From contig CAYOZJ010000002.1 of NCBI GenBank assembly GCA_964408485.1, forward strand, positions 5,235 to 69,234: DNA of 64,000 nucleotides. Reading direction: 5' to 3'. A program made the position numbers and the translations under genes. Shown here one piece after another: positions 23,668 to 51,800 of this stretch. Source of the DNA: an uncultured Gammaproteobacteria bacterium. GTDB taxonomy: Bacteria > Patescibacteriota > Microgenomatia > Levybacterales > UBA12049. The first letter of the stretch is position 1; every line of letters begins with the position of its first letter. The notes beneath the pieces were generated by a model that made no database searches, was not told the DNA's origin, and saw only the letters and a list, made by a program, of their open reading frames with translations.

Positions 23668-24028
23668 GCACTTCGCGCCGTTCCCAAGGCTTAAGACTTA
23701 AAGAGATTCCTGTATTCTGACTTAAAGCCTGCTCCTTAGCCTGCATTGCTAAGTTCTTGAGGTATTCTACACGATTTTTCTTATAATCTCCAACTTCAAC
23801 ACTCACTCTGACAAATTCGCCCAACTCTTTTGAAGCAACAAGAGAAAGAATTGTCTGAAATGACTCAAGCGTTTCCCCATGATAGCCAATAAGCATACCA
23901 CCATCTTCTGTCTCTACAACAACCTGAAGCATGTCCTCTGCAGGAGATACGGCAACATTGCCGCTTACCCCCAAAAGAGAAAGAAGTTTTTCTGCTGTTT
24001 CTTTAACTACTTGTGCTTGTTTTTCCAT
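23582..24028 (-). CDS. jag: Jag/KhpB RNA-binding protein (KH + R3H domains)
   Basis: 148 aa. The R3H-like C-terminus and its position immediately downstream of yidC form the canonical yidC-jag pair. Confidence 0.7.
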   Translation of the reverse strand: MEKQAQVVKETAEKLLSLLGVSGNVAVSPAEDMLQVVVETEDGGMLIGYHGETLESFQTILSLVASKELGEFVRVSVEVGDYKKNRVEYLKNLAMQAKEQALSQNTGISLSLKPWERREVHVLLQDDGEVTTESMGEGRDRVLVVKPR

Positions 24029-24894
24029 TATTTTCTCCTTACTTTATCAACCCATTCGGTCAAGCCGCCTAAGCCTGAGATTTGATACTGCTGCAGTATA
24101 CCAAAAATCGTAAACGTATTCCAGTATAAAGACAGCCCCAAAGGAAGTGTCCAGGAAAAGATAGCAATCATTGCAGGGAAAATATACAAAGACTGAGACT
24201 GAAATGCTGTTGCAAAATCATCTTCCTTTTTAACTTCCGCAACCAAGGCTTTGCTTCCACTTGCTTTAGCATCTTTTTCAACGCCTTTAATTTTCTCCTC
24301 AAAGCTCTGAAACATCATCTTTGACTGAATAAGCTGCAAAACCCCTGTTACTACTGGGATTAAAACGATTGCAAATACACCCAATTGGAATACATGACCT
24401 GGTGTTAAGCCAAGAGGAAGCCCAAAAAAGCTTGTATCCCACATATGAGTAAGTTTAAGGCCAGGGAAGTAGAGGGAGCCATTTACATAATTTAGCACGT
24501 GTTTTGCATCTGTTTTTACTATTTCCTGAAGTACTCCGTACAACGACCAGATAAGGGGAAGCTGGACCAAAAGTGGCAAGCACCCTGCAACAGGGTTAAC
24601 TCCATGCTCTTTGTAGAGTTTCATTGTTTCTGTCTGAAGGCGGGTTGCATCATTTTTGTGGATTTCTTTTAATTTATTTAAGTGAGGTGTTAGTTTTTGC
24701 ATTTTTTGAGACGTTTTGAGCTGAGAACCAATGAGTGGGAAGAGCAGCAAGCGAAAAAGTGCAGTCAAAATAATAATAGAAAAACCCAATGCATATGGCA
24801 CGTGAATCATTACCAACCCCTGATAAATCGCAACAAGTACATTAATAATGGGATGAACAAGAAGTAAATTAAAAAATTGAAAGAAAATGTTCAT
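24028..24894 (-). CDS. yidC: membrane protein insertase YidC/Oxa1 family (short Gram-positive-type)
   Basis: 288 aa, 5 TM. Conserved region KMQKL.P....L...YKEHGVNP..GCLPLL.Q.P. Confidence 0.85.
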   Translation of the reverse strand: MNIFFQFFNLLLVHPIINVLVAIYQGLVMIHVPYALGFSIIILTALFRLLLFPLIGSQLKTSQKMQKLTPHLNKLKEIHKNDATRLQTETMKLYKEHGVNPVAGCLPLLVQLPLIWSLYGVLQEIVKTDAKHVLNYVNGSLYFPGLKLTHMWDTSFFGLPLGLTPGHVFQLGVFAIVLIPVVTGVLQLIQSKMMFQSFEEKIKGVEKDAKASGSKALVAEVKKEDDFATAFQSQSLYIFPAMIAIFSWTLPLGLSLYWNTFTIFGILQQYQISGLGGLTEWVDKVRRK

Positions 24895-25125
24895 TTATTT
24901 TTGAAGCATTACGGGTAGAGAGCTTACAAATGGCTGGCAATATAAAAGTCTTAGTATTGATTTTGCTGTCCCAACTAATATTCCGTCTCGCTCAATATGT
25001 ATTCTAGCATACTCCGAGCATGTTGGCGAGTAGCGACACGCATGTCGCACTCCCATGAGCTGATGCAGAAAAGGAGAAAGGACATGCTGATAAAACGACA
25101 AGATAAGAAGCATAATACGTTTCAT
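24895..25125 (-). CDS. yidD: membrane protein insertion efficiency factor YidD
   Basis: Start at the internal Met (MKRIML...). YQHVLSPFL....CRY.PTCSEYA is the YidD signature. Confidence 0.75.
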   Translation of the reverse strand: MKRIMLLILSFYQHVLSPFLHQLMGVRHACRYSPTCSEYARIHIERDGILVGTAKSILRLLYCQPFVSSLPVMLQK

Positions 25126-25445
25126 AATGATAATTTTGCAAAAATATTGTTTATTTTTTCTTCCAACTGCATCCTTTCTATGTCCTTTATCTGTGGGTGA
25201 AGAATAAAGAGCACATCGTACCCTTTTCCTTTCTCCAACCATTGCTGCTCAATAACAGATCGAAAAACACGCTTGAGCCTATTTCTCACAGTCGCTCTTT
25301 TATCTATGGTTTTTGCCACAATAAATCCATATCGATTGTAATCAAGGTTATTTTTTTGCACTTTGGCAGAAAACACGCTGTCTTTAAAAAAGTGGGCATT
25401 GGTAAAGATAATAGAGGAGGGGAGTCTGAATTTTCTTGATAACAT
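25122..25445 (-). CDS. rnpA: ribonuclease P protein component
   Basis: 107 aa. Basic residues, a KRAT.RNRLKR-type motif, and position between rpmH and yidD. Confidence 0.8.
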   Translation of the reverse strand: MLSRKFRLPSSIIFTNAHFFKDSVFSAKVQKNNLDYNRYGFIVAKTIDKRATVRNRLKRVFRSVIEQQWLEKGKGYDVLFILHPQIKDIERMQLEEKINNIFAKLSL

Positions 25446-25582
25446 TACACAGTAAGACTATGTCTACCTTCAGCTCGTCGTCTTTTTAAGACTTTCCGAC
25501 CATTATGGCTATCCATTCGAGCTAAAAATCCATGCTTCTTTCGAGACTTCACTGGCTTGGTGGTACGAATTCCTTTTTTCAT
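25445..25582 (-). CDS. rpmH: 50S ribosomal protein L34
   Basis: 45 aa from the internal Met. [45 protein letters not shown] matches the L34 consensus (…THGFRARM…GRKVL.RRR.KGR). Confidence 0.85.
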
Positions 25583-25638
25583 GTATGTATAGTATAGCAA
25601 ATAGTGAGTGCGTTTGTCTAATGTTAGCCTTTGATCTC

Positions 25639-25668
25639 TTGACAAAAAGTTATCCACATTGCTACAGT
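25639..25668 (+). promoter_or_regulatory. dnaA promoter with embedded perfect DnaA box (TTATCCACA at 25650..25658)
   Basis: TTGACA at 25639..25644. TTATCCACA in the spacer. TACAGT-like -10 at 25663..25668. dnaA ATG at 25679. Confidence 0.5.
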
Positions 25669-25678
25669 TGCAGCTACC

Positions 25679-27019
25679 ATGACGCAACCGCTAGACGCTA
25701 TTTGGACCACTGTTTTGTCGGGAATAGAAAAAGAAGTATCTCGAGCTAATTTTTTGACTCTTTTCAAGCAAACTGCACTCATTTCTTTTGATGAGGGGAT
25801 CGCAACCGTTGCCGCACCCTCAACAATGGTTATTGACCTTCTCCAGAAGCGTTTCTTACCAATCATAAAACTTGCCTTAGAAAAAGAATTCAAACAAGAC
25901 GTAGATGTACTTTTTGTTACAAAAACCTTTACCTCTTCTCAAAAAGAGCAAGACACACCGCTTTTTACAAATACTCAGACTACGACCAAACCTCTCATCG
26001 GTCATTTACCCCGAGTAAGACCCGATTTTACCTTTGAAACACTTGCTGTCTCGGACTCAAACCGCTTAGCATACGAATCTTCCAGAAATGTTGCTAAAAA
26101 TCCTGGCAAATCATATAACCCGCTTTTTATTTACGGTCCTGTGGGAGTAGGCAAAACCCACCTTATGCAAGCAGTCGCTAACGAGGTTTATTCACAAAAT
26201 CCCGACAACAAAATCATTTACATAACGAGTGAAGAATTTACCAATGAAGTGGTTGAGGCAATTCGCTCCAATGACACAGCTAAAATGAAGAGGCGTTTCC
26301 GCTCGGCTAATTTGCTTATCATTGACGACGTGCAATTTATCGCAGGAAAAGATAGGGTCCAAGAAGAGCTGTTTCATACTTTTAATAGCCTTATTGACGG
26401 CGGGGCACAAATTGTATTGTCATCAGACAGACCGCCAAGCGAAATCAAAAAGCTTGAAGCGCGACTTTCGTCTCGTTTTGCAGGCGGACTGACTGTTGAC
26501 GTTGAGGCACCGGATTTTGAATTGCGAACAGCAATTGTTTTAAAAAAAGCAGAAAAGGTTGGCTTTGCCATATCGATTGACGCAGCAAAAATTTTAGCTG
26601 AAAAAGAGCAAGACGTGAGATCTCTTGAGGGGATGCTCCTTCGTGTTGCAACACTTTCCAAGGGGGGAGACCTACATGAAAGCGAAATTCGTCGCATGCT
26701 GGGTTCTGCAGATCTGGACAACAAAACTCATGCAATTCATGCAGACGACCTGATTGATGCAATATGTCAATTTTATAATGTCAAAACAACGCAGCTAAAG
26801 GGACCGAAGAGGGACGCTTCGCTTGTTAAAGCTCGTCAAATTGCCATGTATCTTCTTAAGCACGAATTGGGTCTTACGCTTGTTGAAATAGGAAATATCT
26901 TGGGTGGACGGGACCATACCACCGTAATGCACGGTGTGGATAAGATGGCACATCTTGTGGAAAAGAAGGGATTTTTGTCTGAGGAAATTGTGGGGATAAA
27001 AAACAGGATTAGGGGATAA
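25679..27019 (+). CDS. dnaA: chromosomal replication initiator DnaA
   Basis: 446 aa. Walker [11 protein letters not shown], Walker [10 protein letters not shown], and the C-terminal DNA-binding signature KARQIAMYL...TL.EIG...GGRDHTTV.H. Confidence 0.95.
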
Positions 27020-27163: not shown

Positions 27164-28258
27164 ATGAAAGTAACTATACTGGCAGAAAACCTTCAAAAGA
27201 AATTATCATTTGCCAATAAGGCAATCTCTACGAGAAATCAATTACCTATACTTTCCCATGTCCTTCTTGAAGCAAAAGGAGAGAGACTCATTATTAGCAG
27301 TACGGATTTAGAAATTGGAATAGAAACATCTCTTCCAGCAACTATTGAAGAAGAAGGAGCAACAACAGTACCAGCAAAGCTTTTTCTAGAATTAGTTAAC
27401 TCTCTTCCTCAAGATAAAATAATACTTACTACAGTGGACGGCTCATTAGAAATAACGAGTAAAAAAACAAAATCTCTTTTCCAAACAACCCCAAAAGACG
27501 AATTCCCTTTATTGTACGAAGAAAAAGGGGAGAAGGTTGCTGTTTTTACGAGAGGTAATATGAAGACAACATTTGGAAAAATCCTTTTTGCAGCAAGTAA
27601 TGAGACAACCCGCCCCGCACTCTCAGGAATTCTTTTTCAGAAAATGATAGATAAATTTCTTATTGTTGCAACAGATGGATATAGACTTTCTCTTGATGAG
27701 ATGCCTGAATCTGGAAAACAATCATTCGAAAAGCTTCTTATCCCAGCACGAATCTTACGTGAGGCAATGGGTGTTTTTGAGGACGGGGAAACAGACTTAT
27801 ATCTTTCAAGTAAAAACAATCAAATTATCTTTGAGCAAGAAGACACGCTTCTTGTTGGAAGAACAATTGATGCGACATTTCCAAATTTCGAAAAAGTAAT
27901 CCCAACCGATAGTGCAAGTGTTGCAGTGATAGATAAAGAAGAACTTTTAAAAGCAGTAAAACTTTGTGCGATTTTTGCCCGTGAGTCAGCAAATATTATT
28001 ACCCTTTCACTTTTGCGAGAAAAAATAGTTGTGAGTGCAAAATCTCCATCGCTTGGAGAGAATACAGTAGATGTAGAAGCGTCTCTTACAGGTGAGGAGA
28101 ATCAAATAGCCTTTAATGCACGATATCTTCTTGAGGCACTATCTAATATTCCGGAGAATGAGATAAATTTTTCTATGACAGGGCCATTAAATCCTGGGGT
28201 TTTCCGCATTCAGGGAAACATTAATTTTCTTCACTTGATTATGCCCATTAGGACATAA
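27164..28258 (+). CDS. dnaN: DNA polymerase III beta subunit (sliding clamp)
   Basis: 364 aa with a three-domain clamp. MKVTILAENLQKKL...ISTRNQLPILSHVLLEA. Confidence 0.9.
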   Translation: MKVTILAENLQKKLSFANKAISTRNQLPILSHVLLEAKGERLIISSTDLEIGIETSLPATIEEEGATTVPAKLFLELVNSLPQDKIILTTVDGSLEITSKKTKSLFQTTPKDEFPLLYEEKGEKVAVFTRGNMKTTFGKILFAASNETTRPALSGILFQKMIDKFLIVATDGYRLSLDEMPESGKQSFEKLLIPARILREAMGVFEDGETDLYLSSKNNQIIFEQEDTLLVGRTIDATFPNFEKVIPTDSASVAVIDKEELLKAVKLCAIFARESANIITLSLLREKIVVSAKSPSLGENTVDVEASLTGEENQIAFNARYLLEALSNIPENEINFSMTGPLNPGVFRIQGNINFLHLIMPIRT

Positions 28259-28259
28259 T

Positions 28260-28970
28260 TTATTGATACCGTATATCAAGTTTTTGAATTTCCTCATCGG
28301 TTAAACTAAGAGAGTGAAGCCAGGAAAGAAAATCACCTTTCCCGCTTGCTGCTTTCTGCGTAACAGTAAAGAAAAAGCTTCCACCTTCAGAATCAGAAAA
28401 GTCTGAAGTTACAGAAAAGCTGTCTGAATCGTAAGGCGTGTATGTTGCTAAATAAACATCTGGATAATTTTTTCGTTGTTCGCTGTCGGCGGTGGTCTGG
28501 AGATGATCATACTCTTGGGAAAGAGGAGCTACAGAATTGGATGAATTTCCTGTTGCAAACGTGCCAGTGAAGATAATATTGCCATCTTGGTCGAGAAACG
28601 AATAAGTATAAATTGTGTTGATATCAAGAGGTTGGGAAAATGCAATGATTATCTGATTGTTAGTTACTGTTGGCACAGATTCGATACTAGGATATATATT
28701 AAATGTTATGCCCGGCACAGGTTGGCTGAAGTTAGCTTTGATAGATGCGTTTGATAGAACGTTTTCTTCCTTGTCTTTCGGGGAAATGGATACTAAATGA
28801 ACAGAACTATTGATAATAGAGTTTGGTGCACTGATAGGTGTGGGCGTTGGAAGTGAGGACGGAAAAGGATTAAGTTGCGACTTCTGTCCTAAGCTGAAAA
28901 TCACCAAGCAAATGATGATGAGTATGACAATACTGCTAATAAGTATTAATTTCTTCATTGTTTTCTCCAC
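28260..28970 (-). CDS. signal-anchored secreted/surface protein (hypothetical), last gene of the T4SS-like operon
   Basis: 236 aa. N-terminal TM/signal (KKLILISSIVILIIICLVIF), a Pro/Thr linker and a β-rich ectodomain. Confidence 0.4.
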   Translation of the reverse strand: MEKTMKKLILISSIVILIIICLVIFSLGQKSQLNPFPSSLPTPTPISAPNSIINSSVHLVSISPKDKEENVLSNASIKANFSQPVPGITFNIYPSIESVPTVTNNQIIIAFSQPLDINTIYTYSFLDQDGNIIFTGTFATGNSSNSVAPLSQEYDHLQTTADSEQRKNYPDVYLATYTPYDSDSFSVTSDFSDSEGGSFFFTVTQKAASGKGDFLSWLHSLSLTDEEIQKLDIRYQ

Positions 28971-30136
28971 CAGCCTAAAATATTTGCCCCACGCCCTAGA
29001 TTGTCATTTAAGTTAGTCCATCGAAACCACGTAACGCCATGGCGATAATTTGCTTCAACCACACGAATAGTAAACTCATTACCCTGAACAGTTACAACAG
29101 TGGCAATATGTCCTGGGTCTGATCGCCCAGTGCTTCCATAGATAATTATATCCCCTGGAGCAATCGCTCCCCCAGCTTGATTTATTTTACTTGTTGTACA
29201 ACCACCAACGCGATATGGATTACAGATAAAGCTATATCCGGCTTGTCTATGGCCAGAGTTCATGGAGTACCATTGAAAAACACTTCCCACATTCCCTGGG
29301 AATACTGGCCAACCCAGTAAGTGTTGCGCAGACCAAATAAATTGTCCGCACTGAAAATTCGGGTATGTGGCATTAAGGTTGTTTTTAAATGATTGTGGAA
29401 TATTTAGATTTCTGACACAAGATGGATATGGTGCATGTGCGCCACCACCTTCACAAGTAAGAATTTGATTAACTGCATTAACCAATCCACCAAGAGAGCC
29501 AGATGGGACAGGGATTCCTCCAGATCCTCCGGCGTCTTGTGGCGGATTTCCAATAGCAATATCAAGAGACTGTATGGTTTTGTATGTAATTTGTTTAATT
29601 GGGGTGGGGAAAACTTGTTTGCCTTGCGTTGGTGACGGTAAGAGGGCACAAAAACTCAATGGGAAATCTTGTCCGGCTTGGTCTGGATTAGCAAAAGATG
29701 GTGTTTGCACAATAATATTAAGCCTGCACGCTTCTTCGGGAGAAATATGAAGTAGGGTAAGGATGTTTTGTTCGGCAATTCCTCTCGTCGTATCGAACGG
29801 TCCAGTAATAGTAACAAGAAATTGATTTGAGCCGGGTAAATAAACAATTCGATACTCATCCTTATCTGCTAATGCACGGTCTCCTTCGGGATCAAAGGGA
29901 GTTGTGGATTGATAAAAATTATCTGTTGTGACCCCATCAATTGTTATCGTATTTCCTGTGGGAATAGGGGCCGTAGTAGGATGAGTAACAGGAAAAAGTG
30001 GCTCAACAGGTGTGGGGGTAACAGTGTTGCTTGGCGTTGGTACCGATTTTTTGGGAAGATATAAAAAACCAACAACAAGCAGAATAGCAATAAAAAGAAG
30101 CCCACCAATAAGTAATCGAATCTTTGTCATATGCAT
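28955..30136 (-). CDS. membrane-anchored CHAP-domain peptidoglycan amidase/peptidase
   Basis: 393 aa. N-terminal TM anchor. The C-terminal CHAP signature has the catalytic Cys (NFQCGQFIWSAQH) and His (DPGHIATVVTV). Confidence 0.6.
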   Translation of the reverse strand: MHMTKIRLLIGGLLFIAILLVVGFLYLPKKSVPTPSNTVTPTPVEPLFPVTHPTTAPIPTGNTITIDGVTTDNFYQSTTPFDPEGDRALADKDEYRIVYLPGSNQFLVTITGPFDTTRGIAEQNILTLLHISPEEACRLNIIVQTPSFANPDQAGQDFPLSFCALLPSPTQGKQVFPTPIKQITYKTIQSLDIAIGNPPQDAGGSGGIPVPSGSLGGLVNAVNQILTCEGGGAHAPYPSCVRNLNIPQSFKNNLNATYPNFQCGQFIWSAQHLLGWPVFPGNVGSVFQWYSMNSGHRQAGYSFICNPYRVGGCTTSKINQAGGAIAPGDIIIYGSTGRSDPGHIATVVTVQGNEFTIRVVEANYRHGVTWFRWTNLNDNLGRGANILGWWRKQ

Positions 30137-30145
30137 ATTATATAG

Positions 30146-32284
30146 TTAGAAACACTTTCCTTTCTCAGCATGCCAGGGACCGTCCCAATTATTGCCTGCC
30201 GAGCGATAGAGACTTACTGCTGCTTTTACGTTGTTGGTTGGATTTTTCATAAAATTTGCGCAGCTATTTTCAAGGGATTGGTTTGCAATTTTGCATATAC
30301 CAGAACTATAACTAATGTTTTGGGCACACGACCTGGATACTAGGTCTCCATGTGCTAAAAGATTTATTTGAAATAAACCCACACTATAGTCTTTTGTCCC
30401 GCCTCGCAGACATGCACTATTAATAATTCCCGGATCTCCGCCGCTTTCGTGTTTGCAGATGCAACTTGCTACTGTTCCTTCTTTCTGTCCGCCAAAAAAT
30501 GGAGCAAGCGCTGTTGGACTACAGGAGCCTGATGCAAGCACAGGTTGACCTACTCGTACCGCACCAGTCGTATTAGCAGTTGTGGATTGATTTAGCCCAG
30601 GCGGTCCGCTCCCAAGTGCGTAGGCTGCAGTGATTTGGTTGTGAAGAATAATATCTTTTTCAGTGGGCGTTAGTGTTACATTAAATTCCCAGTGCTTATT
30701 AGATGCCGTTGAGTTAGGTAGGGGGGTATTTGCATCAAGATTCCAAGTAATGGAGTTGCCAGTCAACACGTGTTGTCCTGTAATACTATTTGCAACAATA
30801 GTGGCAGTCGTGGGAATTTGATCCGTTATAACCAACGAGTACTGGCCTGTGTAGTTAATATCAATGAGATATTTAATATTTTGTCCATTTAAATACGTTG
30901 TTTTGCCAGACGGGTCAGTAGTAAGGGTGAGAGTGAGCCCGGGAATTGGCGCAGTTCCTCCAGAGGGAGGGGGCGTATTAGAGAGAAGGATAATAATAAA
31001 TGCAGCAGCAAGTATAAGACCTAAGATTATTACAACTGCAACGAGAATAATGATAATGCCCAAAAGTACCTCTGGATCAATACCAAGCAGTAGAGCTAAT
31101 CCCTCAAAGCCACCTTGTCTTGCTGCAGCTCCTGCCACTAGCTCCTCTCCTTTTCTTGTTGTGTTTGCCAACTTTCTTCCTTCTCTTCCAGCATTTCTCA
31201 CTGCGTTGCCTGCTTGATTGACGAGTTGTCCTGTGCGACCATTTTGTTTTTGTTGTGTCGAACCCTGAAAGCTTCTTTGGGGAATTGCTTCCGGCTGCTG
31301 TTGAGAATAGTTTGCATGCTCAATTGCCGTATGAACGGTGTCTTCATACCCTTCATCAATTGTTGTGTTGTACGAAAAACCATACCTACCAAATTGTCTT
31401 ACTGCATCGTCGAGTGCAACTGATTGCCATTGATTGTCAAACGCCGTTCCAAGTCGTTGTAGTGCTAAGGAACGCATTGCGTCTGTCTGATCTGCATTTT
31501 GCGGTTGACCCCGAAGTGCTGCTTTTATGCTCTCGGCATTATATTGTTCTGTTTTTCGTTGGTTAAGAAGTTCTTGTGATTGATTACGTAATGCTTCGTC
31601 TGAAAGTGCCATGTTTTGGGTTTGCAGAAGCGGTGCAAGACGCGCATTGCCCTGTTTGCTTAGCTCGTCCAATTGTTGGGTAAGATCTTTTTTGTCTGCA
31701 TACAAGGATTGCGCTTGTGCCTGAAGTATTTTGTATTGATTTCCTAAAATTCCCGCAGCACTTAAATGAGTTCGGTAGAAATTTTCAATTGCGTCAGGAA
31801 GATCCTTCTCCGAGGTTGTGTCGAGAAGATGCTTAAAAGCATTAATCGTAGCAATTTTTTGCGTTTGCTTCAGTTTTTCGCTAGCTATATCTTTTGGATC
31901 CGGTCTACTGCTTCCGCCACCGTGATTTTCGGACTTTTTGGGAAGAATGCTCGCAAGCGTAGATGTTTGAGGTGGAGGAGTTTCTTGATTTGATACGGGT
32001 CCTGAAGTAGTAGGTGCGCTAAGGGGCTTACCCCATGCTAAAGCTTCTTCGAAAGTATTCTTTTCATCTCTTTCTAAGGAAAAAGGGTGCTCTTTGCCGT
32101 ATTCTTCAGCATACGCATGAATAAGCTCTCGGGCTAAGCGAGGAAAATTTTCATTATCATTAAGTCTTGCTGCTTGGCGTAATTCCTGAAGTCGGTCAAA
32201 AAGCTCTCGATTTCCCGCCCGTGCAGTTCGATCGAGAAATGCATAAAAACCATCCCACGTATTTGGAGCGTGATCATTGTCCAT
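30146..32284 (-). CDS. large bitopic protein with C-terminal VirB1/IagB-type lytic transglycosylase (SLT) domain
   Basis: 712 aa. A roughly 400-aa cytoplasmic N-domain without a P-loop, one TM (LGIIIILVAVVIILGLILAAAFIIIL) and an extracellular repeat region. The C-terminus carries CKHESGGDPGIINSA...GTKDYSVGLFQINLL, which matches the ES…DYGLMQIN signature of VirB1/IagB lytic transglycosylases. Confidence 0.6.
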   Translation of the reverse strand: MDNDHAPNTWDGFYAFLDRTARAGNRELFDRLQELRQAARLNDNENFPRLARELIHAYAEEYGKEHPFSLERDEKNTFEEALAWGKPLSAPTTSGPVSNQETPPPQTSTLASILPKKSENHGGGSSRPDPKDIASEKLKQTQKIATINAFKHLLDTTSEKDLPDAIENFYRTHLSAAGILGNQYKILQAQAQSLYADKKDLTQQLDELSKQGNARLAPLLQTQNMALSDEALRNQSQELLNQRKTEQYNAESIKAALRGQPQNADQTDAMRSLALQRLGTAFDNQWQSVALDDAVRQFGRYGFSYNTTIDEGYEDTVHTAIEHANYSQQQPEAIPQRSFQGSTQQKQNGRTGQLVNQAGNAVRNAGREGRKLANTTRKGEELVAGAAARQGGFEGLALLLGIDPEVLLGIIIILVAVVIILGLILAAAFIIILLSNTPPPSGGTAPIPGLTLTLTTDPSGKTTYLNGQNIKYLIDINYTGQYSLVITDQIPTTATIVANSITGQHVLTGNSITWNLDANTPLPNSTASNKHWEFNVTLTPTEKDIILHNQITAAYALGSGPPGLNQSTTANTTGAVRVGQPVLASGSCSPTALAPFFGGQKEGTVASCICKHESGGDPGIINSACLRGGTKDYSVGLFQINLLAHGDLVSRSCAQNISYSSGICKIANQSLENSCANFMKNPTNNVKAAVSLYRSAGNNWDGPWHAEKGKCF

Positions 32285-32287
32285 AGG

Positions 32288-34078
32288 CTATTTTGCGCTC
32301 TGTCCGGTCTCTGTTGGTGACAAGCTGGCATGCTGGTTTTGCATTTTTTGAAGTTCTTCTGGATCTGAGGTAATAATATTATGCTCAAAAGGTGCAGCAA
32401 CAATTTGAATGGCAACGTGATTCTGTCCTGCAAAGAAGAGTCCTTGGCCAACACCGGATGAGAGAAGCATTTGTCTTTCGCCATCAGATAGATAGAATGT
32501 TTTCGCGACCGTGTCAATTTCTGAGGTACTCTGCTTTAAAAGAATCTGTATAGAGCTGTTAGAAAGAATTGCGCGACCATAATCACTTGAAAGGAAATCT
32601 TGTACGTCTTGAGTCGCTGTAGTGAGTCCTAGATAGTATTTACGAGCCCTTTTGGCAATGCTGTACATAAAGGATGCAGAATCTTCATGTTTCATTAAGT
32701 ACCATGCCTCATCAACAATAAGTAAGCGTTTTTTTAAAGATTTTCTGACACGAGTCCACACAAAGTCTAAGAGAATATGCATTGCAATGGGTCTAAGTTC
32801 GTCTTCCAAGTCCCGAAGAGAAAAAATCGTGAGAGGATTTGTGATATTGAAATTCGATTGTTGGTTAAAAATGCCAGAAAGACTGCCGGTGACAAATTTT
32901 TCCAAACGGAGGGCAATGTTTTGTGCTATTGGATCCTGTGTTTTTACTAATCTCTGATACAAATCCTGCAAAATAGGAGGCGTTTTTGTCTGGCTTGCCG
33001 GATCTGCAGTAATTCCCTTATCTGCATATGTTTCAACAAGTGCTCTGTCCAAAATTGCATCTTCAGCAGGATTAACTGCACCAAGCATGATTTTTAAAAG
33101 TGCTCGGATAGAAAGGATCTTAAGTCCTAATTCGTTTTCTCCTTCTTCATAGACTCCTGATAAGTCAAATGGATTAATTCTCACAGGACTTGTTGCTGAG
33201 AAATTCAAATATTCTCCCCCTAAGCTCTCTGCGAGCTTGCCGTATTCACTTTCAGGATCAACAACAATAACTTCTGTCCCAAACATAAATTGGCGCATGA
33301 TTTCAAGCTTAATGCTAAAGGATTTACCTGATCCTGATTTTCCAAAAACAACTTCGTTAGCATTCTCTAAAGAGTATCTGTCAAAAATAATAAGTGAGCC
33401 ATTTTGTTGATTTACGCCGTACAAAATGCCTTTGTCTTGCGTTAAGGTAGCAGAGGTAAAAGGAAATGTCGATGCGAGACTAGATGTGTCCATGTTGCGT
33501 GTAATCGACAATTTGTCTTGTCCAATCGGTAGCGTTGTTTTAAATCCCTCCTCCATCTGAAGCGTTGCTGGTTTTGCTGTTACTAAAAGAGAGGAGAGCG
33601 TGCTGGTCAATTTTTTAGTTGCTTGTTCTAGTTCTGCGCTGTCTGTTGATGAGAGGGCAATGTAAAGACTAAATTGAAAAAACCGTTCTATTCCTTTTGC
33701 CAATTCTGCCTGGAGTCCAAGGGCGTCAGAAAGTGCTGCTGCAACTTTGGGATTTTCTGGTTTCCCTTTTTCTTCATCGCTTGACATTGTTGCTTCCATC
33801 TCGGCGATTTTGCGCTTTAAATTAGACAACACATCATCAGTAAAAATTGGATAGACAAACATACTAATTGCTAGAGAGTGATCAAAATCAATAACAGGGG
33901 ATAGCCACCCGACTGATACATATCGAGGGTAGCCAGAAACAAAAAATGTTCTGTAGAAATGATTACCGACACGAATCGTCTTAAAGTCTACCTCAACTTT
34001 TGTTGGGGCAATAGCATCTGCTGCATTGCCGGCTCCCTCAATAGATACTTCTTTAGATTTTTTAGTAAAAAGCGCCAT
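32288..34078 (-). CDS. virB4: VirB4/TrbE/CagE-family type IV secretion ATPase
   Basis: 596 aa. Walker A VFGKSGSGKSF, Walker B LLIVDEAWYLM, and the GLTTATQDVQDFL motif. Short, Gram-positive-like length. Confidence 0.85.
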   Translation of the reverse strand: MALFTKKSKEVSIEGAGNAADAIAPTKVEVDFKTIRVGNHFYRTFFVSGYPRYVSVGWLSPVIDFDHSLAISMFVYPIFTDDVLSNLKRKIAEMEATMSSDEEKGKPENPKVAAALSDALGLQAELAKGIERFFQFSLYIALSSTDSAELEQATKKLTSTLSSLLVTAKPATLQMEEGFKTTLPIGQDKLSITRNMDTSSLASTFPFTSATLTQDKGILYGVNQQNGSLIIFDRYSLENANEVVFGKSGSGKSFSIKLEIMRQFMFGTEVIVVDPESEYGKLAESLGGEYLNFSATSPVRINPFDLSGVYEEGENELGLKILSIRALLKIMLGAVNPAEDAILDRALVETYADKGITADPASQTKTPPILQDLYQRLVKTQDPIAQNIALRLEKFVTGSLSGIFNQQSNFNITNPLTIFSLRDLEDELRPIAMHILLDFVWTRVRKSLKKRLLIVDEAWYLMKHEDSASFMYSIAKRARKYYLGLTTATQDVQDFLSSDYGRAILSNSSIQILLKQSTSEIDTVAKTFYLSDGERQMLLSSGVGQGLFFAGQNHVAIQIVAAPFEHNIITSDPEELQKMQNQHASLSPTETGQSAK

Positions 34079-34080
34079 AA

Positions 34081-34671
34081 TTATTCGCTATATACATCAT
34101 GAAAAAGTTTTACCAATTCTGCTCCTGTAATAATCCGTGCACGAAGATTCATTCGGTCGATTTGAGAGAGAAGGCTTTCTGCTTTTGTCTTGAGTCCTGC
34201 ATGCGCCCTGATGAAGAAGTCATCAAGATTATCACTTCCCATTTTTGCAACTCCACCAATACCTTCTTCTAGAAGGGAGTAAGAAATAACAAAAAAGAAT
34301 TGTTTATCTAGGACTGTTGTTGATGTAACTAAGTCTTTAACAAACGATTGATATTGAAGAATGTCTTGGGAAAGCTTAGGGTTATTGGCTTTTTGGGAAG
34401 CAATGCCTAAGGAGTCGATATATGGGAGAATATTGACTTGTTTGCTACGCATGACAATTTGTACAGGGAAAGAAAGAGAATTAAGAAGTCCTGCGTAACC
34501 ATATACTTTCGCGTCCTGTTCCTCGCTTGATAAAAGGGCAAAATTTACTGCCTGGAGCTCGATAAGTAGGCAGGCATTGCCTCCTTTCATCAAAACAGTA
34601 TCCTCTCGAATGTCCAGGACTTCGGTAAAGGATTGCGTTGATTTTGCGTGATGTTGGGCAGCTTGTTTCAT
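34081..34671 (-). CDS. hypothetical cytoplasmic protein, co-transcribed upstream of virB4 (2-nt gap)
   Basis: About 197 aa from the internal Met; no motif. Could be a separately encoded VirB4 N-terminal or accessory domain (inference). Confidence 0.35.
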   Translation of the reverse strand: MKQAAQHHAKSTQSFTEVLDIREDTVLMKGGNACLLIELQAVNFALLSSEEQDAKVYGYAGLLNSLSFPVQIVMRSKQVNILPYIDSLGIASQKANNPKLSQDILQYQSFVKDLVTSTTVLDKQFFFVISYSLLEEGIGGVAKMGSDNLDDFFIRAHAGLKTKAESLLSQIDRMNLRARIITGAELVKLFHDVYSE

Positions 34672-34672
34672 A

Positions 34673-35848
34673 TTATCCAAAGAGCTCTTTGCGCAAATCT
34701 TCCCGTGCGTCAATTGAGATAACCTCAAGTGGTTGGAGAATGTCTCCAATTGCTTGGAGTTCTATTGTGTCAAAGCGCTGTTTGCTGTTAGGGTCTTCGA
34801 AGGTAAGCGTGTATGTGCCGTTGATAACAGGCGTTGCGGAAGCAAATTGTCCTAATGGATTTGTTTTAAAAGCTCGTACTGGATTTTCATCTTTATCTTT
34901 TACTTCAATTAAAATATTTGGTAGCACATTACCTCTAGGGTCTTTAACAACGCCGCAAATAAGATTGGGAGTATCGCTGACAAAAGGAGCACCTACTATT
35001 TTTGATTGCCCTGGTGCTACTTGCCTTACGTTTTCAGTAATCTTTGGCGTAGGAGCGCTAGACGGCGTAAATACCTGTTGGGGCTTTTGCGATAGCTGCT
35101 TTTGGAGCTCAAGTAGTTTTGTCTCAAGTTCTTGTTTTTGGGCACGAATTGATTGAAGCTGAGATTCTAAGTCGCCCACTTTTTCATGGGCCTCTTCGGC
35201 TTCTTTTTGGTCATGCGCCGCTCCTTCTTGTTGTTTTGCTGCAGCAATTTCTTTTGCCAAATCCACCGCCTCTTTACTTAGCTCTTGCTGATTTGTTTCT
35301 TCGTTTGTTGTGTTGCTTTGCGCGGAAACTGGGGCAATGGGCGTGCTTGCAAGTTGTATGGTAGGTATCTCTTGAGGTTTTTGCTCTTCAAAAAGCTTCT
35401 GGAAGGAAGTGCTGTCAACAGGCGTTACTAGTTGCACTTTTTCTTCCTTTTCTTCTCTCTTTTCCTCTTTTTTTTCCGGTTGATTGTCTACTGTTGTGGT
35501 TGGGGTAGGTGCATCATCAGATGATTTATACGTATATTGTGTTGGCGAGAAAACAGCCTTAAAGAAGTAAAAGATCATGCTGTCTGCTGGTCGTCCAGCA
35601 AGTGGGATAAAAGCCAAAATAACCCCAGAACCTGCAAAAAAAACAATAAGCGGCAGTTTTATGAGAATAAAAACAGGAAGAGACAGACTTATCCATGCCA
35701 ATACAACACCTGCGGCAAGGTAAGCAAATTGCTTAATGGTCATATCGCCAATTAAGCGAAATTGAAATCCTGTAACATCTTGTGGAATAGGATGATTATC
35801 CATATAAAAAAGTGTATGACGTGAAAAATCCCATTGCAACCCTTTCAA
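34673..35848 (-). CDS. T4SS-associated bitopic membrane protein: VirB3-like TM hairpin, coiled coil, and C-terminal β-sandwich domain
   Basis: 391 aa. N-terminal PIPQDVTGFQFRLIGDMT followed by two TM helices gives a VirB3/TrbD-like topology. A Glu/Lys/Gln-rich coiled coil follows. The C-terminus resembles a carboxypeptidase-regulatory-like β-sandwich (GVVKDPRGNVLPNILIEVKD...NGTYTLTFE). Confidence 0.35.
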   Translation of the reverse strand: MKGLQWDFSRHTLFYMDNHPIPQDVTGFQFRLIGDMTIKQFAYLAAGVVLAWISLSLPVFILIKLPLIVFFAGSGVILAFIPLAGRPADSMIFYFFKAVFSPTQYTYKSSDDAPTPTTTVDNQPEKKEEKREEKEEKVQLVTPVDSTSFQKLFEEQKPQEIPTIQLASTPIAPVSAQSNTTNEETNQQELSKEAVDLAKEIAAAKQQEGAAHDQKEAEEAHEKVGDLESQLQSIRAQKQELETKLLELQKQLSQKPQQVFTPSSAPTPKITENVRQVAPGQSKIVGAPFVSDTPNLICGVVKDPRGNVLPNILIEVKDKDENPVRAFKTNPLGQFASATPVINGTYTLTFEDPNSKQRFDTIELQAIGDILQPLEVISIDAREDLRKELFG

Positions 35849-35912: not shown

Positions 35913-36569
35913 ATGCCACTTTCTCTTTTTGTTGGGATCCTTATTATTCTTTTTTTACTCTCCCGCCGGGTTACCCGCTTGCTCTCGCATTTATTTGTTC
36001 GTCTTTTCCGCAGTCAGCACGCAGCGATCTATGCATTGTCTTTTATTTTTCTTCCTGGGGTTGTTTTGCATGAACTGTCACATTTGCTTTTGGCAAATAT
36101 TCTTTTTGTTCCAACAGGAGAGGTCGAATTTTTTCCAGAGATTCAAGGGGATCAAGTAAAAATGGGAAGTGTTGCTATTGCTCGCACAGACCCTTTACGA
36201 AGATTTCTTGTTGGTGTTGCACCGGTTATTGGAGGATTGGGTATTATTCTTTTAGCATCAACATATCTTTTTACCACACTTCTTTCTTGGCAAAGTTTAG
36301 TACTTTTTTACATAATTTTTGAAATAGCAAATACAATGTTTTCCAGCAGTAAAGACATGGAGGGAGCAGTAGGACTTCTTATTGGTCTTGCAGCGCTGAG
36401 TATTTTGCTACAATTTCTTGGTCTGCCATTATGGCAAGTGGTGATTCAGTTTCTGGGGAATGAATTCGTAAACAGCATTCTTATTAGAATGAATTTATTT
36501 TTGCTTTTAGCGCTGGGGCTTGACGTCTTTCTCGTGCTTCTTTTTGAAGGAATTGCCAGACTAAAGTAA
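35913..36569 (+). CDS. membrane-embedded HExxH zinc-metallopeptidase-like protein (DUF3267-like)
   Basis: 218 aa, 5-6 TM. HELSH lies within the GVVLHELSHLLLANI helix. It is the only plus-strand gene inside the minus-strand T4SS-like cluster, and it is adjacent to the pilin genes. Confidence 0.4.
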   Translation: MPLSLFVGILIILFLLSRRVTRLLSHLFVRLFRSQHAAIYALSFIFLPGVVLHELSHLLLANILFVPTGEVEFFPEIQGDQVKMGSVAIARTDPLRRFLVGVAPVIGGLGIILLASTYLFTTLLSWQSLVLFYIIFEIANTMFSSSKDMEGAVGLLIGLAALSILLQFLGLPLWQVVIQFLGNEFVNSILIRMNLFLLLALGLDVFLVLLFEGIARLK

Positions 36570-36890
36570 CTACTGACATGTTCCAAATCCAAACGAAAGA
36601 ATGCACGTGACTCCTGTAATGCCCGCAACAAGACCGATAATAAAAAATGAAAGAAGGACAATGATGAGACCGATAATGGCATAGGTGACAATATTTTTTG
36701 CTTCTTCAACGCCCTTGCCTCCACCGGAGGTTATATATTTAATGCTTGCAAAAAGAAGCATAAAAAGAGAAGCAAGCCCCACAAGATAAATAGCCGCACC
36801 TACTCCAATTCGGTATAGCGGAATAATGCAGGAAAGTGTTGGAATACCATTTACTACGCAGTCTTGACCATTAACAATCCATGAACTCAT
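36570..36890 (-). CDS. VirB2/TrbC-like pilin candidate (paralog 1 of 4)
   Basis: 106 aa with two hydrophobic helices flanking the ASIKYITSGGGKGVEEAKNIVTYAIIGLII core. Conserved with the other three paralogs. Confidence 0.5.
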   Translation of the reverse strand: MSSWIVNGQDCVVNGIPTLSCIIPLYRIGVGAAIYLVGLASLFMLLFASIKYITSGGGKGVEEAKNIVTYAIIGLIIVLLSFFIIGLVAGITGVTCILSFGFGTCQ

Positions 36891-36931
36891 ATATGTAGCC
36901 TATCAGAGAGAAAATAAGAAAACAAGAGAAG

Positions 36932-37327
36932 TTACCTTGTTAATGTAGGGAGCGTAAGATTAAATAGACTTACACCAACAAACAAGTTAAGAACAAAGTT
37001 GACGATGAGATAAGAAAGAAAAATAATAACAAGGCCAACAACAGCTGCCACTATTGTTTCGCGTGCTTTGTTAACGCCTTCTTTTTCTCCTTGAGACGTA
37101 AGCCACTTGACGCCGCCAAGAATCAAGAAAACTAATGCCAGCATGGCGGCAACAACAAAAACAAAATTAATTGCATTACCGATTACTTTATTTAAATCAG
37201 AGGCTCCAAGACAAAGAGCGCTAAAGTTACCAGGGGGACATGCATTAATGTTAACATCTGCAAATGCAATAGGAGCAAGAAATGCAGAAAGACTGAGCGT
37301 GCCGATTGAGGCAAATAATTTCTTCAT
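36932..37327 (-). CDS. VirB2/TrbC-like pilin candidate (paralog 2; Sec signal peptide)
   Basis: 131 aa. Signal peptide ...APIAFA|DV. Core LILGGVKWLTSQGEKEGVNKARETIVAAVVGLVIIFLSYLIV. Confidence 0.55.
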   Translation of the reverse strand: MKKLFASIGTLSLSAFLAPIAFADVNINACPPGNFSALCLGASDLNKVIGNAINFVFVVAAMLALVFLILGGVKWLTSQGEKEGVNKARETIVAAVVGLVIIFLSYLIVNFVLNLFVGVSLFNLTLPTLTR

Positions 37328-37367
37328 TGACTCTATCGTAGAAACAATTCTTTATCTTGTCAAGTCG

Positions 37368-37706
37368 CTAGTTGCCAAGAAGATGTACGCCAAACGTGAA
37401 ACCAATGAAGTTAATAATAAAAAATGACAAAAGAGCGAGAATAAGGCCGACAATCGCATATTGGATTGTTTTTTGTGCACCCTCCAACTGCTTTTTGTCT
37501 CCTTGAGACGTAATCCATTTTATTCCCCCAAACATAATAAAGAAAAATGAAAGTAAGATTACTGCAACAAATATGCTAATAATGACAAAAGAAACAATGC
37601 TTTGGATCGAGTTATTGTTCATGAGATTGCGTATTTGATTGGGAACGAGCACAGGATAGGTTGCTGGTTCATCTGGGTTGCCAATAACAAGAGCAAGATA
37701 CCTCAT
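37368..37706 (-). CDS. VirB2/TrbC-like pilin candidate (paralog 3)
   Basis: Start at the internal Met (37706). Core IMFGGIKWITSQGDKKQLEGAQKTIQYAIVGLILALLSFFII. Confidence 0.5.
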   Translation of the reverse strand: MRYLALVIGNPDEPATYPVLVPNQIRNLMNNNSIQSIVSFVIISIFVAVILLSFFFIMFGGIKWITSQGDKKQLEGAQKTIQYAIVGLILALLSFFIINFIGFTFGVHLLGN

Positions 37707-37707
37707 A

Positions 37708-38355
37708 TTATTTCCTAAAACCTGGAATTTGGAGAATATCAACGCCAATAAATTGCAAGATAACCACAGAGAAGATGATAAATATTAACCCAACAATTGC
37801 AGCAGTTAGTCTTTCCCTTGCTTCTTTTACTTTTTCAGGATTACCCTGTGACGTAATCATTTGGTATCCTGCAGCAATAACAAGAAGAATCGCAACCCCC
37901 CCGGAAAGTCCAAGAAGAATACCAAAGGTGCTTTTTACGAATCCCGCAACGGTTGTTTGAATGGGTCCAAAAGCAGTATCAACGCTTGCACATGTTCCAT
38001 TGGCATAGGTTTTGCATGGCGGAGCTAAGTATGGTGATGGTGAAGGGGGAATGGGTTTATTTTTATCTTTTGGCTCACAGCAATAGCCCGAACCCAAGAA
38101 GCCGCATTTTGGAACACATGGGCCAGTATCCCACAGGAATAAGCCACACCTACTACTTGTTCCATATTTGTATGAAGCATTAGGGGCTCCGTTAATAGTG
38201 CAGTTGTCACCCGGTTTTGGATTAGAAGCATTGGCATCTTGCGGCTGAGCGTTGCAATAGTTTGGATAATTACAGTCAGCCTGTACGTTTCCTAATGTGG
38301 CAAGGGTTAGGCAGAAGAAAACAAAGATAAAGACTCCTATTTTGAAGAATTTCAT
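37708..38355 (-). CDS. Cys-rich ectodomain fused to a VirB2/TrbC-like pilin module (paralog 4)
   Basis: Signal peptide MKFFKIGVFIFVFFCLTLATLGNVQA. A roughly 110-aa domain carries about 12 Cys (DCNYPNYCN...CGFLGSGYCCEP...). The C-terminus reads GYQMITSQGNPEKVKEARERLTAAIVGLIFIIFSVVIL. Confidence 0.5.
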   Translation of the reverse strand: MKFFKIGVFIFVFFCLTLATLGNVQADCNYPNYCNAQPQDANASNPKPGDNCTINGAPNASYKYGTSSRCGLFLWDTGPCVPKCGFLGSGYCCEPKDKNKPIPPSPSPYLAPPCKTYANGTCASVDTAFGPIQTTVAGFVKSTFGILLGLSGGVAILLVIAAGYQMITSQGNPEKVKEARERLTAAIVGLIFIIFSVVILQFIGVDILQIPGFRK

Positions 38356-38396
38356 ATATCTATCGTCCCACATGCTATCTTTGATTGTCAAGAAAA

Positions 38397-39764
38397 TTAT
38401 TGCTCGAATCGTATCCCTCTGCCTTTAACAGTGAGAATATGGATAGGTTTTGTGGGATCCTCTTCAATTTTCTTTCGAAGACGTAAGATGAGTTGGTCAA
38501 GTGCTTGCTCACTTACTCCAGATTGTGTTTTTGTGTCTGACCAAACAGTAGTAATAATTGTTTCTCGGTCAACAATGGTTCCTTGTTGTTTGAGAAGAAG
38601 TCGAAGTAAGCGAAACTCAGAAAACGTAAGCGTATCGGAGATAGGTTGTTCATCCTGATTGATTGTATTTGTTGATTCATCAAGCACAATTTTTGTAGAT
38701 ATATGTTTTGTGCTTTCTGTTTTTACATATTGTGCAAAAAGAGGAATGGTAATTTTTTGATTGTGAATAAGTCCAACGCTTTGAAGGAATTCGCTGGGGA
38801 GAGGGCAGTTGCCATTCTTGCAAAGCATGAGCATATCTTGTCTCTCATCTGGCGTTAGGAAGAGCCACAATTCCTTCAGTACTCCTTGGATGCCCTTTGT
38901 TCTGAGAAGAGATTTTTCAGTAGCACCGGCAAGAAGCGCTTCAAGCCCAAGCTTAGTGAGTTTGCCATGCCAGCCGGTAAGTGCAAGAAGCTTTTCAATG
39001 TATGACTCTGGTAATTTTTTCCCTGCAAGTTTTTCTAAGTAACGTAGGCGAAAGTCAAACCCAATGCGATCTTCAAGCTGTAGATAGATTGTGTTGTCCA
39101 CAACAAATTCATAAAAATCAGAAAAGATTTCTGGTTCAAGCATATCCTCCAGAGGACGTGTCGATGAGAAGACAATGGAAAAGGCATATTTTGCTCTGCT
39201 GCGAATGCTTCGCAAATTGTTAAAAAATTCTTCACTTGCCTGAGGGACAAAGGTTTCAAACCGGTCAAATAAAAAAATAATATGTAATTTTTTCTCAAGA
39301 GTTAGGTAATCAAATGCATCTTTAAGCTTCTGAAACAAAACCAACTCATCGTTATACGAAAGTGCTTCCTTAAAAAGCTTGTCTACCATTAAAAACTCTT
39401 CTTCTTTGCGTCTCTCATGCAGGCTAGATGCAAGCTCAAGAAAGAAGAATTTCATTATGTCAAAAAGAGACCTGTTTTTGATTTCTGAGAAATGAATTAA
39501 AACAAAATGATAGACCTCCTGCTTTGCCTCTCCTACATGGTGAATTCGTATATTTCTGTTATACGTTAATAAATTCAAGACAAAATTTCTTCCGGCTCCA
39601 GGCAGCGAGATAAGCTGAAGAGATTTACCAGCGTTAATTGCAGAAAAGATTTCTCCGATTTCTTTCTCGCGGGTAGTTGCCGGATAAAGAGATTCTAAGC
39701 GCTCCGCTTCATAATTGACTATTGAAGAGTGATTATTGACAATTGACCTGGATTTATTTTTCAT
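38397..39764 (-). CDS. transcriptional regulator, C-terminal OmpR/PhoB-type wHTH with N-terminal degenerate P-loop-like domain. Sits immediately upstream of the pilin genes on the same strand.
   Basis: 455 aa. The C-terminus (FSEFRLLRLLLKQQGTIVDRETIITTVWSD...ALDQLILRLRKKI...ILTVKGRGIRF) is a trans_reg_C wHTH. The N-terminal SLQLISLPGAGRNFVLNLL is paralogous to 12763..14064. Confidence 0.5.
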   Translation of the reverse strand: MKNKSRSIVNNHSSIVNYEAERLESLYPATTREKEIGEIFSAINAGKSLQLISLPGAGRNFVLNLLTYNRNIRIHHVGEAKQEVYHFVLIHFSEIKNRSLFDIMKFFFLELASSLHERRKEEEFLMVDKLFKEALSYNDELVLFQKLKDAFDYLTLEKKLHIIFLFDRFETFVPQASEEFFNNLRSIRSRAKYAFSIVFSSTRPLEDMLEPEIFSDFYEFVVDNTIYLQLEDRIGFDFRLRYLEKLAGKKLPESYIEKLLALTGWHGKLTKLGLEALLAGATEKSLLRTKGIQGVLKELWLFLTPDERQDMLMLCKNGNCPLPSEFLQSVGLIHNQKITIPLFAQYVKTESTKHISTKIVLDESTNTINQDEQPISDTLTFSEFRLLRLLLKQQGTIVDRETIITTVWSDTKTQSGVSEQALDQLILRLRKKIEEDPTKPIHILTVKGRGIRFEQ

Positions 39765-51581: not shown

Positions 51582-51587
51582 GATGAG

Positions 51588-51672
51588 CGGAGAGGGCGAG
51601 ATTCGAACTCGCGAATCCTTGCGGATCGTTGGTTTAGTAAACCAATGCACTCGGCCACTATGCGACCTCTCC
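51588..51672 (-). tRNA. tRNA-Ser-like with unusual anticodon ACT (ACU)
   Basis: Type II architecture identical to the other Ser tRNAs (acceptor GGAGAGG, long variable arm, TTCGAAT). The anticodon arm TTGGT-TTACTAA-ACCAA gives 34-36 = ACT. Confidence 0.55.
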
Positions 51673-51713
51673 AATAGCTTCATTTTATCATTTTGAGAGA
51701 GGTCTGGGAAGTG

Positions 51714-51800
51714 CGGAGGAGACAGGATTCGAACCTGCGCGAGCCTTACGGCTCAGGGGAATAGCAATCCCCCGCAATGGACCAGCTATGCGACTCCTCC
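51714..51800 (-). tRNA. tRNA-Ser (anticodon GCT)
   Basis: Acceptor GGAGGAG, anticodon arm GGGGA-TTGCTAT-TCCCC, a long variable arm, T-loop TTCGAAT. Confidence 0.8.

Follow-up and report, generated by a model that had tools for sequence, protein, structure and literature searches.

The 64,000-nucleotide (nt) stretch of contig CAYOZJ010000002.1 analyzed here (the window) is part of a Patescibacteria (candidate phyla radiation, CPR) chromosome and spans its origin region. It carries a type IV secretion system (T4SS) gene cluster in which the open reading frame (ORF) directly after virB4 (30146..32284, reverse strand) codes for a 712-amino-acid (aa) bitopic protein, a predicted T4SS-associated peptidoglycan glycosidase. 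This protein is likely the subunit that opens the cell wall for a chromosomal T4SS, of a Patescibacteria type that derives from MPF-FATA (MPF, mating-pair formation) systems, with the function of VirB1 and the position and topology of PrgK. It has four parts, all coded on the reverse strand: an N-terminal region of ∼395 aa that is presumably cytoplasmic (aa 1-395; 31100..32284), one transmembrane (TM) helix (aa ∼404-435; 30980..31075), a beta-rich and probably extracellular spacer domain that begins with an IPGLTL motif (aa ∼445-570; 30575..30952), and a Cys-rich, lysozyme-like C-terminal SLT_3 domain, here called the head, which is delimited by Pfam, alignment, and a structural model (aa 583-712; 30149..30538).

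We propose that the SLT_3 protein is translated together with VirB4 and would insert with its N terminus in the cytoplasm and its C terminus outside, so that the one TM helix would hold the spacer and a disulfide-stabilized head beyond the membrane. The head, with Glu613 as the catalytic acid, would cleave the N-acetylmuramic acid–N-acetylglucosamine (MurNAc-GlcNAc) strands locally, where the machine and its VirB2-like pilus cross the wall, and a separately anchored CHAP protein would cut peptide stems or cross-links. The cytoplasmic region may serve to hold the enzyme to the inner-membrane complex or to place it there, a role also assumed for the PrgK intracellular domain.

The lysozyme-like SLT_3 head

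The head matches the Pfam family SLT_3 (PF18896, "Lysozyme like domain") over aa 604-704 (E 1.4e-6; 29.1 bits against a gathering cutoff of 27), and the same threshold is passed by the homologs P0007 and P0012 and by the protein of the related locus L006. It contains the motifs HESGGDP (from aa 612) and KDYSVGLFQIN (from aa 631), and these motifs together with the alignment identify Glu613 (codon 30446..30448, reverse strand) as the predicted catalytic residue and mark Asp632 (codon 30389..30391, reverse strand). In an alignment of 38 homologous heads, Glu613, Ser614, the Gly, Leu, Gln, and Asn of GLFQIN, and most of the Cys residues are invariant, and Asp632 is retained in at least 90%. The Cys pattern varies in one respect: in members with a "CIC" motif, the window protein among them, the first conserved Cys is missing and alignment position 34 holds an additional one. 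The homologs come from a HMMER search of 1.84 billion cluster representatives that returned 449 relatives of the 712-aa protein at E ≤ 1e-3; word-indexed protein searches with the full protein returned itself alone and with the N-terminal part or the head returned nothing, not even the protein itself, and a tblastn search of 72,556 plasmids with the head gave no match at E ≤ 1.

An AlphaFold2 model of the head built with the homolog alignment is of high confidence (predicted local distance difference test [pLDDT] 95.1; predicted TM-score [pTM] 0.87). Lysozyme-like folds are the only meaningful neighbors that Foldseek returns for it, all with weak scores. Phage SLT-domain (soluble lytic transglycosylase) proteins match at E 3.5e-3 (probability 1.0; TM-score 0.55-0.57), and DslA, C-type lysozymes and alpha-lactalbumin, phiKZ gp144, Cj0843, MltF, and Slt match at E ≥ 0.07 (TM-score 0.42-0.53). 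The model has the fold of the lysozyme-like superfamily, and in it the catalytic Glu, within an ES motif, appears to end the first core helix as in members of that superfamily. A preliminary description of this gene had proposed a lysozyme-like, SLT-type C-terminal domain with a catalytic Glu, and this stands on all three lines: the residue is invariant in 38 of 38 heads, the SLT_3 threshold is passed, and the fold is modeled with confidence. Both ways in which that proposal could have failed were checked, and neither the loss of the Glu nor a motif lying outside a lysozyme-like fold is seen.

Searched against the PDB, the head profile finds animal C-type lysozymes first (E 4e-4) and not bacterial SLTs. 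The profile alignment places the ES..N and D-Y-x-G-[LI]-F-Q-I-N motifs of the head on Glu35 and Asp53 of human lysozyme, and the alignment also runs through two Cys positions. The animal enzymes (GH22) share with the head a length of ∼130 aa and the possession of eight Cys residues, but the E-values are marginal, the TM-scores are ∼0.5, and phage SLT-domain models match at least as well, so the resemblance is one of superfamily and not of family membership.

The ES...N...D.G[LI].QIN pattern of the head presumably echoes the VirB1/IagB motif, and the preliminary description had called the protein VirB1-type. That label holds as a statement of predicted function and fails as one of sequence membership, since the window protein does not reach PF01464 (no match at E ≤ 0.1; threshold 21.3 bits). 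Among its relatives, the L006 protein passes that threshold (23.5 bits against 21.3) and P0004 scores 16.7 bits. Agrobacterium VirB1 and the IagB/IpgF-type proteins (GAMMA class, PF01464) likewise have a lysozyme-like fold and open the wall for a secretion machine. VirB1 proteins, however, are soluble, periplasmic proteins of diderms, whereas the window protein is TM anchored, with a hydrophilic N terminus and no signal peptide, and its head is Cys-rich (eight Cys), unlike the VirB1/IagB type. As judged from sequence, the window protein would work like VirB1 and is a member of neither the VirB1/IagB nor the PrgK head family. The head may cut glycan either as a lytic transglycosylase, with nonhydrolytic cleavage to 1,6-anhydroMurNAc, or as a hydrolytic muramidase; the PrgK domain formerly called SLT is a muramidase (PMC11323569), and the SLT name by itself does not decide the chemistry.

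Topology and position after virB4

There is one hydrophobic stretch in the 712-aa protein (aa 393-441), in which hydrophobicity and AlphaFold2 agree on a helix at aa 404-435; the AlphaFold2 model from the single full-length sequence (pLDDT 42.7) is usable for this helix alone. An Arg/Lys-rich stretch flanks the helix on its N-terminal side. The eight Cys residues of the protein are all in the head, with none in aa 1-587, as would suit an extracytoplasmic location of the head. The single helix, its basic flank, and the placement of the Cys residues and the hydrolase indicate that the topology is very probably N-in, C-out. The segment from the TM helix to the head shows no secretion or cleavage signal. 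A two-helix TM hairpin was considered and is ruled out, there being 28 contiguous hydrophobic residues and one predicted helix only. The preliminary description had also reported a large N-terminal region devoid of a P-loop and followed by a single TM helix, and the sequence scan finds the same. The spacer is tentatively DUF11/Ig-like (TIGR01451, E 0.047, with DUF11 matches in homologs), and its profile has no real match in the PDB (the best, to legume lectins, at E ≥ 0.025). In jackhmmer comparisons, the TM helix and spacer are the conserved part of the genes that follow virB4 in related genomes.

The T4SS cluster is transcribed from the reverse strand and adjoins dnaN. In order of transcription, it codes for a TrbL/VirB6-like polytopic membrane protein (43839..45647; 602 aa with seven hydrophobic segments), an array of four VirB2-like T4SS pilins (36570..38391; PF18895), a PrgI/VirB3-like membrane protein with a C-terminal CarboxypepD_reg domain (34673..35848; 391 aa; assigned by Pfam), a TrsD-like protein resembling the VirB4 N-terminal domain (34081..34749; 222 aa; NF041427 TrsD and NF045975, residues 98-241), the VirB4-like ATPase (32288..34078; 596 aa; NF045971 conju_CD1110, E 3.6e-125), the SLT_3 protein, a CHAP partner hydrolase (28955..30136; 393 aa), and, in the final gene of the operon, a small protein with an N-terminal TM and a Big_5 Ig-like domain (28260..28970; 236 aa). 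The virB4 stop codon and the ATG of the SLT_3 gene are 3 nt apart, and 9 nt separate the SLT_3 stop codon from the start of the CHAP gene. The CHAP protein consists of an N-terminal TM anchor (aa 1-33), a linker, and a CHAP domain (aa 257-363; 29048..29368, reverse strand; PF05257, E 2.4e-7, 31.6 bits against a cutoff of 26) in which the catalytic motifs NFQC263GQF and GH343IATV are assigned by motif. The T4SS setting, the membrane-anchored CHAP neighbor, and the division of glycosidase and CHAP between two polypeptides coded by adjacent genes had all been described beforehand, and all are borne out.

This organization agrees with published Patescibacteria T4SS loci, which lie beside dnaA/dnaN and have a separate TrsD and a pilin array, as described by Quinonero-Coronel et al. 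in 2025 (PMC12102498). The VirB6-like protein passes the Pfam TrbL/VirB6 cutoff (E 1.5e-6; 28.6 bits against 25.9) and has relatives in 30 related loci; VirB6 homologs are scarce in Microgenomatia according to the same survey (PMC12102498). The TrsD-like ORF ends 3 nt ahead of the 596-aa VirB4 ORF, and a "split VirB4" anomaly was considered and ruled out because the 222-aa ORF is TrsD-like; a separate TrsD-type ORF is usual in Patescibacteria (PMC12102498). The window also codes for a class A penicillin-binding protein (PBP) and a SpoIID homolog, and the organism thus makes peptidoglycan and the T4SS has a wall of its own to cross.

The closest parallel in position and layout is PrgK of the Enterococcus faecalis plasmid pCF10 (DELTA class), where the order is prgI, virB4 (prgJ), and prgK (PMC11323569). 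Like prgK, the window gene is a T4SS operon gene immediately downstream of virB4, itself after a prgI-type gene, and both proteins have a long and, for the window protein, predicted intracellular region, one TM helix, and extracellular peptidoglycan-hydrolase domains, among them a lysozyme-like catalytic domain that uses Glu. In PrgK, the single TM helix (aa 254-274) is preceded by a Lys-rich N-terminal domain of 253 aa, which is described as intracellular (PMC11323569). The preliminary description had regarded the intracellular domain of the window protein as an extra feature; with the intracellular-TM-extracellular layout already published for PrgK directly after virB4, it is not, and domains of this kind vary in length between hydrolase classes, according to a 2025 review (PMC12857230). 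The two proteins also differ. PrgK carries LytM, muramidase (Pfam Phage_lysozyme2), and CHAP on one chain, whereas the window protein has a spacer and an SLT_3 head that is not homologous to Phage_lysozyme2, with CHAP anchored separately; there is no sequence similarity in the head (hhalign probability 0.2%) or the intracellular part, and BLASTP of the CHAP protein against PrgK gives nothing significant. The Big_5 gene occupies the position held by PrgL in pCF10.

TraG of pIP501 (ALPHA class) and Orf14 of Tn916 (BETA class) are likewise membrane-anchored wall hydrolases of monoderm T4SSs (PMC12857230, PMC12102498). In TraG, a single chain bears both an SLT-type glycosidase and CHAP and its intracellular part is much shorter, whereas BETA-class enzymes have no such part (PMC12857230); in the window, the two activities are split and the intracellular part measures ∼395 aa. 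A chromosomal Patescibacteria T4SS with a pilin array, as in the window, is also present in Southlakia epibionticum ML1 (PMC10633639, PMC12102498), whose epibiotic growth requires peptidase and lysozyme homologs encoded immediately after virB4 (PMC12102498, citing PMC10633639). By analogy with these homologs and with PrgK (PMC11323569), the window protein may be needed for T4SS function. S. epibionticum belongs to the Saccharimonadia, whereas the window is Microgenomatia/Levybacteria-like, and the likeness is one of description and not of compared sequences.

Related loci and the N-terminal region

The 80 closest VirB4 relatives among species-representative genomes, at loci named L001 onward, are overwhelmingly from metagenome-assembled genomes of Levybacteria, Microgenomates, or unclassified Patescibacteria. 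In 65 of the 80 loci, the start of an ORF of at least 150 aa lies within 260 nt of the virB4 stop codon. In many of the encoded proteins, a long hydrophobic helix joins two variable parts, one N-terminal (∼40-640 aa ahead of the TM) and one C-terminal, and the juxtamembrane/TM/spacer core of the window protein is recognizable in 27 of the 65. Where Pfam recognizes the heads they are usually peptidoglycan enzymes: M23 (11), CHAP (4), SLT_3 (2), and SLT, glucosaminidase, M15, and S11/beta-lactamase-like (1 each, the last in L011). It is highly improbable that the window gene is a housekeeping hydrolase for growth or cell separation that merely lies beside T4SS genes. SLT_3 also occurs on many proteins of other layouts, at least 55 of the best 150 cluster representatives combining it with other domains and with no more than a signal or an anchor at the N terminus, but a bitopic hydrolase-type gene directly after virB4 in most of the 80 loci, despite changing sequence and head, the operon-like spacing, and the same gene order in pCF10 all argue against that reading.

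The window and its nearest relatives show how quickly this position changes. VirB4 is 89% identical between the window and L001 and 81% between the window and L002, whereas the N-terminal region of the post-virB4 protein is 29% identical in L001 and has no detectable similarity in L002. In both relatives the anchor is fused to CHAP and followed by the Big_5 gene; in the window the anchor carries SLT_3, and between it and the Big_5 gene stands CHAP with an anchor of its own and a catalytic part that shares 50% identity with those of L001 and L002. The SLT/CHAP split in the window thus appears to be one state of a rapidly reshuffled locus. As these alignments indicate, the post-virB4 gene of the related genomes is a modular anchor with interchangeable heads and a cytoplasmic part that is hypervariable and nonhomologous between lineages.

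Such turnover could also be explained if the heads are directed at the host, with an anchored or released enzyme attacking host peptidoglycan at the contact site for entry of the T4SS or pilus, and with heads exchanged to match host wall chemistry. The different heads of close relatives (SLT_3 and CHAP in the window, fused CHAP in L001 and L002, an S11-like head in L011, and M23 in 11 loci) would fit, as would the far faster evolution of post-virB4 proteins than of VirB4 (29-50% against 89% identity) and the finding that Patescibacteria T4SSs, usually relaxase free, are essential for epibiotic growth (PMC10633639, PMC12102498). We nonetheless consider this unlikely: the head is tethered to the cell's own membrane by only ∼150 spacer residues with no secretion or cleavage signal seen, the PBP and SpoIID homolog point to a wall of the cell's own that must be crossed, and PrgK, with the same architecture, works on the wall of the donor itself (PMC11323569).

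We also note a recurrent extracellular domain in P0013, P0014, P0016, and P0017 with the motifs HEL[GS]Hxx.FRN ... CQLDYGPG ... ECFAD. Of these, P0013 and P0017 were scanned against Pfam and gave no match for it; the domain occurs behind the N-terminal anchor family of the window type or fused upstream of SLT_3. It could represent a hitherto undescribed wall hydrolase head of metallopeptidase type.

The N-terminal region is coding. Its frame has no stop in 395 codons against 13 to 26 in the other five frames, and shuffled versions have a mean of 22.5 stops and a minimum of 7, with none of 20,000 stop free. These statistics rule out a miscalled start codon. Some orthologs have merely ∼40-100 aa ahead of the TM helix, as would be expected if the 395 aa were an annotation artifact and the true start lay just ahead of the helix, but this is scarcely credible given the stop counts, the gene-like GC content by codon position, the protein homologs that span aa 4-391, and the ATG placed 3 nt past the virB4 stop codon.

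No P-loop is present in the N-terminal region, and a search of this domain, as had been suggested beforehand, gave noise-level matches to Pfam and NCBIfam and no PDB relative for the family profile (best E 0.17, a tail-anchored SNARE). The region is Q/A/E-rich, Cys free, and basic beside the membrane, with a low-confidence helical prediction, and its single-sequence AlphaFold model is of low confidence and has no compact fold. About nine cluster representatives are homologous to it, and scans of metagenome contigs with the N-terminal alignments gave no confirmed relatives. The best-conserved block, which recurs in three alignments of the family, is helical and lies at aa 133-200 (31685..31888, reverse strand), with the consensus KL..QK.A.L.AF..LL....DLP.AIE.FYRTHLSAAGILGNQY.IL..Q...LY. 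and the core string FYRTHLSAAGxLGxQYxIL. This one N-terminal family occurs with several heads: SLT_3 in the window protein and P0004, CHAP in P0028 (the L001 protein), P0038, and P0126, and the unnamed HExxH domain in P0013 and P0017. Conversely, the same TM/spacer/SLT_3 module is found behind a second N-terminal family with a "GSLDDP" motif. The two families are not homologous to each other (hhalign probability 0.1%), and hhalign detects no homology between the window-type family and the PrgK N terminus.

By analogy with PrgK, the N-terminal region is most likely a fast-evolving, lineage-specific helical extension that tethers or positions the enzyme at the inner-membrane complex. The 3-nt gap to virB4 and the block at aa 133-200, common to the nine or so representatives whatever their head (SLT_3, CHAP, or HExxH), would also suit a docking or signaling module that binds VirB4 or TrsD and couples the state of the ATPase to wall hydrolysis in the manner of VirB10; monoderm T4SSs have no VirB10, and a review considers that an unidentified component probably relays transmembrane signals (PMC12857230). 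This, too, seems unlikely. Positional orthologs have N-terminal regions of ∼40 to ∼640 aa that are nonhomologous between lineages and bear no similarity to that of PrgK, their divergence in L001 and L002 is far above that of VirB4, and the low-confidence model shows no compact fold. Because the N-terminal region is hypervariable while VirB4 is conserved, the comparative sequence data argue against a conserved VirB4 interface; a lineage-specific tether, or a coevolving contact centered on the aa 133-200 block, is possible. A broader proposal makes the Microgenomatia post-virB4 gene a plug-and-play platform, its heads (SLT_3, CHAP, M23, HExxH, and S11-like) swapped to match host walls and hence determinants of host range rather than assembly aids, with the cytoplasmic region as a VirB10-like link that gates them via VirB4 or TrsD. 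We regard this combination as quite doubtful.

Several observations weigh against a VirB1-like subunit that opens the cell's own wall. The head model matches solved lysozymes weakly (E ≥ 0.07; TM-score ≤ 0.53), the head has no sequence similarity to the VirB1, TraG, and PrgK heads of plasmids, and the glycosidase activity of SLT_3 members, including this one, is a prediction from sequence. Heads differ even where VirB4 is more than 80% identical, which is more change than the opening of one's own, chemically stable wall would seem to need. The tethering role proposed for the N-terminal region draws on the analogy with PrgK, and the PrgK intracellular domain has itself no assigned function.

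The window locus is not a new kind of machine, and its intracellular domain has precedent. The T4SS type (in papers of 2023 to 2025), its location, and post-virB4 lysozyme and peptidase genes in a Saccharibacterium have been published (PMC10633639, PMC12102498). Recognizable VirB1 homologs in Patescibacteria are mostly unlinked to virB4, and a 2025 survey left open whether other glycosidases substitute for them (PMC12102498). For Microgenomatia, an answer is suggested by the window locus together with its 80 relatives: the gene after virB4 codes for a PrgK-like bitopic protein, often with a peptidoglycan enzyme head of a family that VirB1 profiles miss, SLT_3 among them. The literature searched describes neither the use of an SLT_3 head in place of VirB1, nor a modular anchor with exchangeable heads in Microgenomatia, nor hypervariable, nonhomologous intracellular parts, and in the library searched no paper came up for PF18896 by full-text search. 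The protein is thereby a defined target for studying how ultrasmall epibionts pass a wall, either their own or that of the host.

Other genes of the window

Next to the T4SS cluster are dnaN (27164..28258, forward strand), dnaA (25679..27019, forward strand), and a reverse-strand group comprising rpmH, rnpA, yidD, yidC, and jag (23582..25687). Between the prgI-like gene and the pilins, a forward-strand ORF (35913..36569) codes for a protein of 218 aa that matches no Pfam family and has an HELSH (HExxH) motif and five hydrophobic segments. It occupies the same position in L002 to L005, L007, and L017 and is also found in L050; a role as an intramembrane metalloprotease is conceivable, possibly in the maturation of pilins.

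Two reverse-strand genes (38397..39764 and 12763..14064) code for proteins of ∼440 aa with a C-terminal OmpR-type winged helix (Trans_reg_C) and a long N-terminal part that has no Pfam match and no recognized receiver domain. The first of these is directly upstream of the pilin array and is kept in 26 related loci, and its product is possibly a regulator of the T4SS. On the opposite strand to the cluster, between the VirB6-like gene and the remaining cluster, lies a 1,191-aa ORF (40263..43838, forward strand) in whose predicted product neither a Pfam match nor a TM segment is found; five related loci have a weakly conserved counterpart (22-31% identity) at an equivalent relative position. Finally, at 51587..51672 on the reverse strand, beside a tRNA-Ser(GCT) at 51713..51800, ARAGORN predicts a tRNA-Ser whose anticodon would be ACT (A at position 34). 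This anticodon is unusual for a bacterium, and the call could be a miscall or a pseudogene.

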